From IMG/VR virus record IMGVR_UViG_2778261067_000003, positions 1-14,003 of that record: a stretch of 14,003 nt of DNA; one strand, 5' to 3'. Position numbers and translations under genes: made by a program. How positions within the stretch are numbered: position 1 is the stretch's first letter; each line of letters opens with the position of its first letter. Under the pieces are notes generated by a model. The model was not told where the DNA came from, made no database searches, and worked only from the letters and a program-made list of their open reading frames with translations. Below, one piece after another: positions 5,344 to 13,350 of this stretch. Origin of the DNA: a virus. Lineage: Duplodnaviria > Heunggongvirae > Uroviricota > Caudoviricetes.

Positions 5344-6468
5344 TCAGGCTACTTGACTATTCTTACTGATGTTATTCTTATACCGTCCCTGCAAAACTCC
5401 ATACACATATTGTGCGATTTTTGCCGCAAATAGCGGTGGAACAGCATTCCCGATCTGCTTTGCAATCTCAGTTTTTGAACCGGTAAAAATGAAATTATCA
5501 GGAAAAGACATTAATCTCGCTGCCTCACGATGAGTTATTGGCCGATCCTCTTCCGGATGTAAATATCGCCCTTTCTCCGGTTTGAAAAACTCAGTACGAA
5601 TCGTTACTGAAGGTCTGTCCCACCACAGACGTCCAAACAAATCGGTCCCTCCAGATTTCTTTTTTAGCCAGCACGCCGGGGTTATATCAGGTCTTTTTTT
5701 CTGTAAATCGAAACGGTTACCTCCTGGTGGAACCGCTTTATATCGCTCCAGAGAAACAGGTGTGGGATTACGCCCAAAATGTAAGTTCAGCGGAGGAAGT
5801 TCATTACGAATATCAGTTCCAACAGGAGCAGGTAAGTCACCAATTGCATCACGCGTACAGACCCATTCAGGCAAAGCGACATCCTTATCAGGGGAACGAT
5901 GCGTTGGTGCTGGCGGGAACGCCGGAATACTATGCACATCGAAGAGTTCTCGTTTGATACCGATTGCTATCGTTCGTTTTCTTGTCTGAGGTACTCCATA
6001 GTCAGCAGTATTCAACACCATTGGATTAAGCAGAATAAAGCCCATGGATTTCGCTCTAAACGTAATGTCCGCAAACTCATCGCTTATCAGCAATCCGGGG
6101 ACATTTTCCATGACGAACATACAAGCCCTTGAACGCTCAATGACATCCATATAAGGCTCCCACAATGCTCTTCGGTGATCACCATAACGATTCTTATTCA
6201 ATAAACTGAATCCCTGACACGGGGGGCCACCTATGACCACATCAGCCTCAGGAACAGTATTGCTGGATGCCCACTCCTCAATATTTGCCTGAACTCCATG
6301 CAAACCAAAATTGGCATTGTAGGTATTTATAGCTGCAGCATTATTATCAATAGCAAGGATACTTTCAAAGTAGTCAGACATCTCTCCATGAAGAAAACCA
6401 TAAGATAATCCACCTGCCCCACAAAAGAGGTCTATCACTCTGAATTTATTTAATTCTTTCATCCGCAT
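5344..6468 (-). CDS. DNA cytosine-5 methyltransferase (Type II R-M modification subunit)
   Basis: 374 aa with canonical m5C motifs: I DLFCGAGGLSYGF, IV GPPCQGFS (catalytic Cys), VI ENVPGL, VIII QTRKR, X GNAVPP. ATG at 6466-6468. Confidence 0.9.
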   Translation of the reverse strand: MRMKELNKFRVIDLFCGAGGLSYGFLHGEMSDYFESILAIDNNAAAINTYNANFGLHGVQANIEEWASSNTVPEADVVIGGPPCQGFSLLNKNRYGDHRRALWEPYMDVIERSRACMFVMENVPGLLISDEFADITFRAKSMGFILLNPMVLNTADYGVPQTRKRTIAIGIKRELFDVHSIPAFPPAPTHRSPDKDVALPEWVCTRDAIGDLPAPVGTDIRNELPPLNLHFGRNPTPVSLERYKAVPPGGNRFDLQKKRPDITPACWLKKKSGGTDLFGRLWWDRPSVTIRTEFFKPEKGRYLHPEEDRPITHREAARLMSFPDNFIFTGSKTEIAKQIGNAVPPLFAAKIAQYVYGVLQGRYKNNISKNSQVA

Positions 6469-6646
6469 CCATATGCCTCAGATTAATGTTGAGCGTCTTA
6501 CAGGACGCGTAATGTTAACTGGGGCTTTCTCTATCTGCCTTTTGGTGTTCATGCCTGAGGCAGACAGCCTCAGGCACCCGCAGCAATTCTACTTAACTCA
6601 CGTCACCTCGCCAATATGAAATCAATCAGAAAGGTGATCCATAAAA

Positions 6647-11141: not shown

Positions 11142-11159
11142 TGTTTTAAAATCAAAACA
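11142..11159. promoter_or_regulatory. Operator-like palindrome TGTTTT-N6-AAAACA abutting the repressor start codon
   Basis: TGTTTTaaaatcAAAACA at 11142-11159, a perfect 6-bp inverted repeat; the cI-like ATG is 11159-11161, implying a leaderless or very short-leader repressor mRNA. An identical motif recurs at 11864-11881. Confidence 0.5.
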
Positions 11160-11797
11160 TGAGCAAGCAAACTATATCTGAACGCATAACCCAACGTATG
11201 CATGCGCTAAACCTGAAAGGCAAAGACCTTGTCAATGGCACTGGCGCATCAAAAGGCTCCGTAAGTCAATGGATGAACGGTGGAGGAGCGCCGTCCTCGC
11301 GTTACATAAGTTCACTGGCAAAAATATTGAAAGTAAACGAAAATTGGCTTCTTAATGGAGGAGAGTTAAATACAGGTGATTCGCTTGATCTATCTTTACC
11401 GCCGATAAAAACGGTTCCGCTACTATCACTTCAGCAGGCAGCAAGCTGGAGTGATTATATGAAAAATTCCTCAATAACCTCTTGTGTGCAGCTTGTCGGA
11501 GAAATCCCGGTCAATACCTTTGCAGTTGTTCTAGAGAGTGACAGTATGTCAACATCTGGTGGGGGAGTTTCCATCCCAAATGGTTCAACAGTTTTTGTTG
11601 ATCCCGATCGAACCGTACAACCAGGAAATATTGTCCTTGCCTTACCCAAAGGGACCACAACACCTGTCATTCGTAAACTGGAGATAGAAGGGCCGGATAT
11701 TCTTTTAGTCCCCACGAATCCTCGCTACCCTTCAATTATGCTGGATGATCTATCTTGCATATTGGGCGTATGCTTTAAAATTCAACAAGATATTTAA
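11159..11797 (+). CDS. Lambda CI-type prophage repressor (N-terminal HTH, C-terminal S24 LexA-like autopeptidase)
   Basis: 212 aa. N-terminus ...LNLKGKDLVNGTGASKGSVSQWMNG... (HTH). C-terminus ...LESDSMS...VFVDPDRTVQPGNIVLA...VIRKLE... aligns with the Ser/Lys dyad region of lambda CI/LexA. Confidence 0.9.
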   Translation: MSKQTISERITQRMHALNLKGKDLVNGTGASKGSVSQWMNGGGAPSSRYISSLAKILKVNENWLLNGGELNTGDSLDLSLPPIKTVPLLSLQQAASWSDYMKNSSITSCVQLVGEIPVNTFAVVLESDSMSTSGGGVSIPNGSTVFVDPDRTVQPGNIVLALPKGTTTPVIRKLEIEGPDILLVPTNPRYPSIMLDDLSCILGVCFKIQQDI

Positions 11798-12623: not shown

Positions 12624-12934
12624 TAGCTAACCAACGAAGCTAAGGTTGGTAATTAAAGAGTTCTCCACGGGTGAGCATCCGGCACTGACAGTTTACTGAA
12701 AGGATATTTCCCTGAAAAGTCAGACCATAACGCGAAAGCGCACGGCGAGGTAGCTGGTTCATAGATAGCCTGTCGTTAAATTTTCGTCGACCGTGCGCTT
12801 CCGGTTGTGGCACTCCGCGAAATGGCGCGGCGGTAAGTATGGCGGGGTTATTCCTTCCCCGTTGAGGACACCGGGTTGTCAGGTTGACCATACGCTTAAG
12901 TGACAACCCCGCTGCAACGCCCTCTGTTATCAAT

Positions 12935-12992
12935 TTTCTGGTGACGTTTGGCGGTATCAGTTTTACTCCGTGACTGCTCTGCCGCCCTTTTT
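12935..12992 (+). ncRNA. dicF: DicF small regulatory RNA (ftsZ-targeting sRNA of the dicB operon)
   Basis: TTTCTGGTGACGTTTGGCGGTATCAGTTTTACTCCGTGACTGCTCTGCCGCCCTTTTT matches the DicF sequence as I remember it, ends in a T-run (12988-12992), and sits between the ydfC-like and dicB genes as in Qin. Confidence 0.75.
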
Positions 12993-13161
12993 AAAGTGAA
13001 TTTTGTGATGTGGTGAATGCGGCTGAGCGCACGCGGAACAGTTAAAACCAAAAACAGTGTTATGGGTGGATTCTCTGTATCCGGCGTTAATTGTTAACTG
13101 GTTAACGTCACCTGGAGGCACCAGGCACCGCATCACAAAATTCATTGTTGAGGACGCGATA

Positions 13162-13350
13162 ATGGAAACGTTATTACCAAACGTTAATACGTCTGAAGGT
13201 TGTTTTGAAATTGGTGTCACTATCAGTAACCCTGAATTTACTGAAGATGCCATTAACAAGAGAAAACACGAACGGGAGTTATTAAATAAAATATGCATTG
13301 TTTCAATGCTGGCCCGTTTACGCCTGATGCAAAAAGGACGCTGGCAATGA
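13162..13350 (+). CDS. dicB: Cell-division inhibitor DicB
   Basis: 62 aa from the ATG at 13162 with GAGGA RBS: METLLPNVNTSEGCFEIGVTISNPEFTEDAINKRKHERELLNKICIVSMLARLRLMQKGRWQ, near-identical to recalled E. coli DicB. The track ORF 13057..13350 is over-extended. Confidence 0.85.
   Translation: METLLPNVNTSEGCFEIGVTISNPEFTEDAINKRKHERELLNKICIVSMLARLRLMQKGRWQ

Follow-up and report, generated by a model that had tools for sequence, protein, structure and literature searches.

Control of host cell division by prophage genes has a textbook example in the dicBF operon, whose DicF was the first sRNA described as deriving from an operon. The operon is found in the stretch of viral DNA analysed here (14,003 nt in full; the window), and coordinates below are window positions on the + strand unless stated otherwise. 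The 53-nt form of DicF lies at 12935-12987, as placed by alignment to the annotated dicF of E. coli K-12 (NC_000913.3); the Rfam DicF model (RF00039) matches 12936-12987 with 76.7 bits. DicF ends in an intrinsic-terminator hairpin, followed by a U-run at 12988-12992, and its seed segment is GGUGACGUU (12940-12948). Further downstream (13150-13350) are the Shine-Dalgarno sequence of dicB (GAGGA, 13150-13154) and the dicB coding sequence (13162-13350), which starts with the ATG at 13162 and is identified both from the K-12 annotation and by Pfam (DicB, PF05358; 132.6 bits). Window positions are converted to NC_000913.3 positions by adding 1,636,447. The dicF-dicB spacer is the same as in K-12 apart from one C/T difference at 13129, and it occurs in approximately 4,000 of 5,426 complete E. 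coli genomes. Near-identical dicF-dicB DNA is also found in contigs labelled as Veillonella and Collinsella MAGs and under the names Aeromonas phage AP1 and Actinobacillus phage vB_Apl-pPE4 (L142, L148 and hits H54 and H62 taken together); these copies are probably mis-binned or contaminated assemblies and do not reflect true host range.

Elsewhere in the prophage, the Rfam sok model (RF01794) scores 61 bits on the minus strand at 6399-6579, slightly over its gathering score of 59, and this match suggests a hok/sok-type toxin-antitoxin locus. An immunity repressor is encoded at 11159-11797 (+) and carries HTH and Peptidase_S24 (LexA/cI-type self-cleavage) domains. DicA of K-12 is described as having no RecA-dependent cleavage site. 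Judging by these domains, this prophage may be SOS-inducible, unlike Qin.

Three repeats had been pointed out in and after DicF by an earlier reading made from the sequence alone (the sequence-only reading), and all three are present. A 14-nt segment, TGAATTTTGTGATG (12997-13010), is perfectly complementary to CATCACAAAATTCA (13131-13144). A 9-nt perfect inverted repeat links the DicF seed, GGTGACGTT (12940-12948), to AACGTCACC (13104-13112). The third is a tandem palindrome, GTTAAC-TG-GTTAAC, at 13093-13106. The 14-nt repeat extends to 19 nt at 95% in a repeat finder, and to 21 contiguous base pairs when G-U pairs are allowed (12995-13015 with 13126-13146). Chance expectation was assessed with 200 dinucleotide-preserving shuffles of 12800-13300, each scored for its longest perfect inverted repeat. 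The longest repeats in the shuffles were 7-12 nt. The 14-nt repeat is thus far above chance (the observed length was reached in 0 of 200), while the 9-nt repeat is not, as a longest repeat of at least 9 nt was seen in 68 of the 200 (34%).

Both pairs of repeats were proposed by the sequence-only reading as possible duplexes in the polycistronic transcript, of the kind cut by RNase III. When 12900-13170 is folded, this is borne out for the long repeat, which closes a multi-branched domain in the minimum free energy (MFE) structure (z = -4.2), but not for the DicF-seed repeat, which has a pairing probability of 0.0. The long helix is also part of the MFE structure of 12990-13150 (z = -6.4). Its pairing probability by partition function is approximately 0.99 in four transcript contexts of 270-800 nt, and the isolated duplex has a folding energy of -30.2 kcal/mol. 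The long inverted repeat is the closing, or basal, helix (P1) of an RNA domain at 12995-13146. This domain fills the dicF-dicB spacer and is predicted to be a single compact unit, with five helices (P1-P5) meeting at one junction and a pseudoknot between the start of the P3 arm and the loop of P4. P1 starts at 12995, past the U-run of the DicF terminator; the DicF model stops at 12987, and the repeats are not part of the DicF (RF00039) family model. The repeats had been described as bracketing the 3' side of DicF. This description has to be revised: what the helix encloses is a structured RNA in its own right, located past the terminator of DicF.

The two arms of P1, defined by repeat search, folds, pairing probability and RNAalifold, lie at 12995-13015 (the 5' arm, which holds the 14-nt segment) and 13126-13146 (the 3' arm, which ends 4 nt upstream of the dicB Shine-Dalgarno sequence). 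The one base that differs from K-12 falls within P1. C13129 forms a G-C pair near the top of the helix; the T found in K-12 (L124) turns this pair into G-U, and the difference is compatible with pairing in RNA. A linker, AAU (13016-13018), leads to hairpin P2 (13019-13034), which consists of GCGGC (13019-13023), the loop UGAGC (13024-13028), GC (13029-13030), a bulged A (13031) and CGC (13032-13034). P3 (13035-13082) is a variable arm closed by GGA (13035-13037) with UCC (13080-13082); RNAalifold recovers these pairs as columns 42-44 with 105-107 and finds AU-to-CG changes among them. Hairpin P4 (13083-13109) pairs GGCGUUAA (13083-13090) with UUAACGUC (13102-13109) around a loop at 13091-13101, with a pairing probability of 0.98. 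The pseudoknot joins CAGUUAA in the P3 arm (13039-13045) to UUAACUG in the P4 loop (13094-13100). The tandem GTTAAC is thereby explained: its first copy supplies the P4-loop strand of the pseudoknot, and its second copy forms the 3' strand of P4. Hairpin P5 (13111-13125; CCUGG, loop AGGCA, CCAGG) has a pairing probability of approximately 1.0, and no linker separates it from the 3' arm of P1. In the 9-nt repeat, the downstream arm (13104-13112) is thus made up of bases from the 3' strand of P4 (13104-13109), the linker A13110 and bases 1 and 2 of P5.

The junction linkers are 3, 0, 0, 1 and 0 nt long, relatives have a P1 of about 7-9 bp, and the last hairpin, of 5 bp, adjoins the P1 3' strand; in these respects the five-helix topology resembles that of a class II tRNA whose variable arm is long. 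No T-loop or CCA end is evident at 12995-13146, and a tRNA or tRNA-like gene was rejected: ARAGORN calls the true neighbouring tRNAs and none of the elements.

Support for the fold comes from sequence variation in relatives of the element. Across 100 distinct sequences, a set which includes copies recognised by Rfam as STnc100 (see below), 92.2% of alignment cells are paired, against 72.5% in shuffles. Double-sided changes are seen in 21 of 28 pairs, and the covariation score is 0.489, compared with 0.15 for shuffles and 0.04-0.14 for slid registers. P2 covaries between CCCCC/GG-GGG and GCGGC/GC-CGC, with 98.5% of cells paired. P4 has double-sided changes in all 8 of its pairs and 94% of its cells are paired. 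P5 shows a U-A/G-C exchange across the family. The inner 4 bp of P1 are near-invariant and the next 3-4 bp covary as UA/CG and GC/AU; it should be noted that P5 and the 3' motif of P1 were partly the search pattern, so that invariance there is partly by construction. Complementarity between the P3-arm strand and the P4 loop is seen in almost all copies, and the pseudoknot was examined by comparing each P3-arm strand with its own partner and with foreign partners. The mean run of complementarity is 6.86 with the own partner and 4.59 with foreign ones, the own-partner run is the longer in 88 of 94 cases, and more than 25 different duplex sequences are represented. Judged by the alignment, all of the helices and the pseudoknot covary across relatives. 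A coding reading of the region, as an ORF at 13057-13350 (+) or 12963-13298 (-), was rejected because these ORFs are mechanical calls, because substitutions track base pairing and not codons, and because dicB is known to begin at the internal ATG.

The domain is a divergent member of the Rfam STnc100 class. STnc100 (RF02076) aligns to 12985-13194 over model positions 1-206, with 38.7 bits (E = 6e-7); the window falls below the gathering score of 47 bits. In the permissive Rfam scan, the STnc100 consensus shares the closing stem of the window. Its consensus helices (the closing stem, a 5' hairpin, variable hairpins, a 7-8 bp hairpin and the GGGAGGCACCC hairpin) are all found in the window, where P1, P2, P4 and P5 have pairing probabilities of 0.7-1.0. 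Sequence motifs are also held in common. These are GGUG-AAU at the 5' end of the junction, UCACC-GGGAGGCACCC-GGCACC at the 3' end, and a hairpin of 5 bp that carries a bulged A and has U-N-N-G-C as its loop; in the window the first two correspond to GGUGAAU (13012-13018) and UCACCUGGAGGCACCAGGCACC (13108-13129). The same Rfam scan of 12700-13250, taken to E = 10, gave only noise matches besides DicF and STnc100 (MIR397, tsr32, mascRNA and ftsZ-DE) and no known ribozyme or riboswitch. A hammerhead-like CUGAUG...GAAA arrangement, seen by eye in copies of the P1-like type, was rejected since stem II would not fit.

In EHEC, RNAs from STnc100 copies have been detected (PMC5331693), and a 2026 preprint links STnc100 structurally to the PasD sRNAs. 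PasD1 and PasD2 are Hfq-dependent and have trans targets in EPEC (PMC8550237). STnc100 and PasD resemble the window element in helix order, closing stem and prophage setting. Several differences separate the window from the STnc100 model. Rfam gives 62-132 bits to members whose P2 is of the CCCCC type, and a covariance model built here from 49 diverse copies gives these members approximately 100 bits and the window 102 bits; in contrast, no member of the GCGGC-type P2 subgroup (dicB, kilR, P1-like, L004, L016 and L131) is called by Rfam at the gathering score. The STnc100 model includes its own terminator hairpin (positions ~170-206), whereas the window element has none and runs into the dicB ribosome-binding site: the next 110 nt contain no terminator-like hairpin, alignment to the model's 3' hairpin is poor, and the dicB start is 26 nt past the 10-bp core of P1. 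P1 is 21 bp long in the window, compared with about 8 bp in STnc100. Finally, the Rfam consensus shows no pseudoknot, whereas one was found here.

BLAST finds the module of approximately 150 nt without DicF or dicB, ahead of kilR in Rac-like prophages and ahead of a TerB-family gene in P1-like plasmids. Scans of viral contigs with the conserved 3' motif and of GTDB genomes with the 5' motif gave approximately 150 loci, in Escherichia, Shigella, Klebsiella, Raoultella, Enterobacter, Pantoea and Mixta. The covariance model then gave 137 and 56 matches in phage and genome loci, respectively, including tandem copies that do not have the exact search motif. Relatives are thus present in more than 100 enterobacterial phage and prophage loci. 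Their settings fall into several kinds. An intrinsic-terminator-like hairpin lies within 110 nt downstream of 55 of the 128 distinct copies. Some of the 55 are arrayed, each unit consisting of the element and a terminator, and phage tRNA genes often lie next to such arrays. In 33 of the 128 an ORF starts 24-41 nt past P1, as dicB does. Some copies begin a few nucleotides past a sigma-70-like promoter, with a terminator and a holin-lysozyme cassette downstream.

Individual loci illustrate these settings. Tandem arrays of STnc100-class elements with a period of approximately 250 nt are found in L025 (342-1038), L038 (1712-3286) and L080 (4366-5473), and in L025 a strong intrinsic terminator follows every unit. 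Phage tRNA genes adjoin copies in L025, L024, L003 and L014. In L087 (4008-4449), a copy starts a few nucleotides past a sigma-70-like promoter (TTGACA-18-TAAATT). A terminator comes next, then a P21-type holin and a lysozyme, and the copy resembles the short leader RNA of a late operon. L040 (8582-9392) has the element with lysis-type ORFs downstream. Copies of the kilR type are preceded by a DicF-like terminator hairpin, GGCGGCAUCAGU...ACUGAUGUCCGCC, with a U-run (L002, 2985-3047). This hairpin is also found in L012, L020, L043, L064, L068 and L128, with a different 5' single-stranded seed, UGCUGUGUGUAGUCUU. The Rfam DicF model does not call it at the gathering score. The kilR-side hairpin may be a DicF paralogue with other targets.

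The length of P1 varies with setting. Among 90 distinct viral copies, most have a contiguous closing stem of 6-10 bp, and a stem of 15-21 bp is found only in the dicB and kilR leaders. RNAalifold independently recovers the 21-bp helix from 14 sequences of the dicB/kilR subtype. These sequences are closely alike, so that covariation in the lower 11 bp of P1 is thin: there are 2 double-sided changes (UA to CG and AU to GC) and 4 broken cells, besides many switches from G-U to G-C or A-U. The kilR type of extended P1 tolerates one bulged A. The G-U pairs and the tolerated bulge indicate that extended P1 pairs as RNA and not as DNA. Conservation had been proposed as a check on the repeats, and the long helix passes it: it is kept across Escherichia, Shigella and phage loci, with both wobble-compatible and compensatory changes.

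These results bear on what the repeats are. There is practically no probability that the long repeat arose by chance in AT-rich spacer DNA. The lower half of the helix is indeed AU-rich and of low complexity (UGAAUUUU / AAAAUUCA), but the shuffles, the z score of -6.4 for the fold and the conservation with compensatory changes refute a chance origin. It is also very unlikely that the repeats are the terminal inverted repeats of a MITE-like element, or a recombination linker joining phage modules, with no role as RNA. A module of approximately 150 bp does recur ahead of unrelated genes (dicB, kilR, the TerB-family gene of P1-like plasmids and lysis cassettes), as a mobile element might. However, its arms vary between copies and yet stay complementary, in part through G-U pairs which are meaningless in duplex DNA; the internal helices and the pseudoknot covary as well. 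There is no target-site duplication at 12990-12994 and 13147-13151, and the orientation leans to the strand of the neighbouring ORFs (92 versus 44). The DNA-level reading was therefore rejected on the G-U pairs, the internal covariation and the missing target duplication.

The DicF-seed repeat is a separate matter. If both repeats formed precursor duplexes, pairing of the seed (12940-12948) with 13104-13112 could serve as an RNase III substrate or could mask the seed in the precursor. The complementarity extends to 12 of 13 positions, the isolated duplex has an energy of -16.6 kcal/mol, and by our own estimate the chance that the DicF seed specifically finds a 9-mer partner within 300 nt is approximately 1%. 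Nevertheless, repeats of this length are common in shuffled sequence, and the pairing probability is 0.0 in all four transcript contexts, the downstream arm being occupied by P4 (0.98) and P5 (1.0), both of which covary family-wide. Comparison between loci also speaks against it. The identical ACTGGTTAACGTCACC stands behind a different sRNA seed in L068, L043 and L128, behind a DicF variant of E. albertii (L125) and in a P1-like plasmid that has no DicF (L003); the best upstream complement in these five is just 4-6 nt. L020 has C in place of U13108, a change that makes P4 better paired and would disrupt the pairing with DicF. We regard a duplex at the DicF seed as highly improbable, and rejected it on zero pairing probability, no covariation and retention of the arm where DicF is absent. 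The 9-nt repeat is incidental: a coincidence between the DicF seed and a sequence that is fixed for other reasons, as part of P4 and P5.

The RNase III claim of the sequence-only reading is accordingly supported for the long repeat, which is in the MFE fold, pairs with a probability of about 0.99 and is conserved, but not for the DicF-seed repeat. RNase III acts on stems of about 20 bp or more; with 21 contiguous pairs, P1 is long enough. A 72-nt DicF made by RNase III has been reported in two papers which cite Faubladier 1990 (PMC5069750, Balasubramanian et al. 2016; PMC9438474, Ponath et al. 2022), and its dependence on RNase III is taken here as stated in the citing text. Counted from 12935, 72 nt end at 13006, inside the 5' arm of P1; this is simple arithmetic, perhaps uncertain by 1-2 nt. 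A cut by RNase III after U13006 would then form the 3' end of 72-nt DicF. From the 2-nt 3' overhang rule (PMC6212723), the staggered partner cut would fall after C13136 and the 5' end of dicB mRNA would be A13137. Pairs between staggered RNase III cuts are well paired and usually include a G-C (Altuvia 2018, PMC6212723); here they would be G13005-C13136 and U13006-A13135, with one G-C, provided that the 72-nt arithmetic holds.

An RNA-seq study of an rnc mutant bears on the same spacer. Table S1 of Gordon 2017 lists an RNase III-dependent position at 1649470, 'dicF-dicB', with 0 and 0 reads in wild type and 26 in an rnc mutant. This corresponds to window position 13023; it is of low depth and low resolution and stands among many similar weak sites. 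Gordon 2017 marks it as 'known' and does not distinguish an upstream from a downstream site. Wild-type reads inside the domain are 0 in this data set, in which the type of library used loses small RNAs. A 2023 operon study in J Bacteriol places RNase III only at the 5' end of a 190-nt species and mentions no 72-nt form (PMC10448788). This upstream site (approximately 12798-12803 by arithmetic) was rejected as a partner of either repeat: no complementarity to the 5' arm of P1 was seen by eye around 12770-12810, and 12770-12995 folds locally on its own.

Taken with the fold, P1 is probably the elongated basal stem, cut by RNase III, of a conserved pseudoknotted STnc100-class RNA in the dicF-dicB spacer. 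The proposed sequence of events is as follows. Relatives that stand alone carry a promoter and terminator of their own, and their P1 measures 6-10 bp. The copies in the dicB and kilR leaders, by contrast, are part of a polycistronic early transcript and have a P1 lengthened to 21 bp. In transcripts that pass the DicF terminator, RNase III would most likely cut both strands of P1, at approximately 13006/13007 and 13136/13137. The double cut would produce the 3' end of the 72-nt DicF (that is, DicF with a 19-nt tail), release an RNA of approximately 130 nt (13007-13136) that retains the family-typical 9-bp P1, and leave dicB mRNA with a short unstructured leader of 25 nt in place of the 21-bp helix, which could influence dicB translation.

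Comparable arrangements are well known. Long-range stems around 16S and 23S rRNA in the primary transcript are RNase III stalks, and the early mRNA of phage T7 has intercistronic RNase III sites. P1 resembles these: the helix is formed from the flanks of a folded RNA or lies between cistrons, has about two helical turns and would be cut on both strands, which splits the polycistronic products. The difference is that cleavage at dicBF is documented only through the 72-nt DicF, as cited from 1990, whereas the pairing partner of the cut strand, a second cut and release of the enclosed RNA are proposed from the structure. The early-leftward operon of phage lambda is under RNase III control at the N leader and at cIII mRNA structures. 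dicBF has the same setting, a lambdoid early-leftward operon with a structured leader just upstream of a small regulatory or kil-type gene, and RNase III can remodel a 5' UTR and alter translation in such a case. However, the dicB leader is a five-helix pseudoknotted domain and not a simple stem; the likeness is one of setting, and no homology in sequence or structure was seen.

The domain might instead act purely in cis on dicB, by insulating or occluding the ribosome-binding site, as a switch that responds to a ligand or protein, or by antitermination of the put type known from phage HK022. The position of P1, 4 nt ahead of the dicB Shine-Dalgarno sequence, would suit such a role, as would the 33 distinct members with an ORF start 24-41 nt past P1 and the copies directly behind a promoter and ahead of a terminator and lysis cassette. 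The five-helix pseudoknotted fold, with its invariant loop and junction bases, is also more elaborate than is usual for base-pairing sRNAs. Against this, 55 of 128 distinct members have their own terminator and some of these form arrays, with no ORF to regulate, there is no known ligand or protein partner, and a role in cis only would leave unexplained why P1 reaches RNase III length in just the operon-embedded copies. As to put, it is likewise a structured nascent phage RNA just downstream of the promoters of long operons, and some STnc100-class copies begin within a few nucleotides of a promoter. It differs in being approximately 72 nt long and in lacking a closing helix, its two stems forming a V, and a search of the HK022 genome with the family model gave nothing at E up to 10. 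Membership of the element among put-like antiterminators was rejected on these two counts; a put-like mode of action may still apply to the promoter-proximal relatives. Overall, a cis-only role is unlikely.

The RNase III reading of the long repeat is itself largely known already and, to the extent that the 1990 result is conveyed by the papers citing it, restates that result. What is new is the reading of the helix as a lengthened basal stem, belonging to a conserved STnc100/PasD-class RNA with a pseudoknot that occupies the dicF-dicB spacer, in K-12 as well as in the window. No link between the RNase III site and an STnc100/PasD-class RNA in the spacer was found in the annotation and the available literature. 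If P1 is processed as proposed, a single RNase III event would set the 3' end of DicF, free a third RNA and remodel the dicB leader, and this would be a concrete link between the two division inhibitors.

A wider reading, possible but considerably more tentative, is that STnc100/PasD RNAs go beyond ordinary base-pairing sRNAs and are widespread modular phage RNAs which bind a conserved host partner. Phages would use them in two forms: promoter-terminator cassettes, often arrayed next to tRNA genes, and operon copies excised by RNase III, the dicBF and kilR copies being released through the extended P1. The tRNA-sized, five-helix pseudoknotted fold would be the part that is recognised, and the partner could be a protein, the ribosome, RNA polymerase or a small molecule. 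Qin of K-12 would then have an unannotated third product between dicF and dicB, whose release is coupled to formation of the DicF 3' end and to maturation of dicB mRNA. For the family, the Rfam STnc100 model misses a whole subgroup, and the class holds a pseudoknot with good support, a finding relevant to the function of these abundant prophage RNAs.
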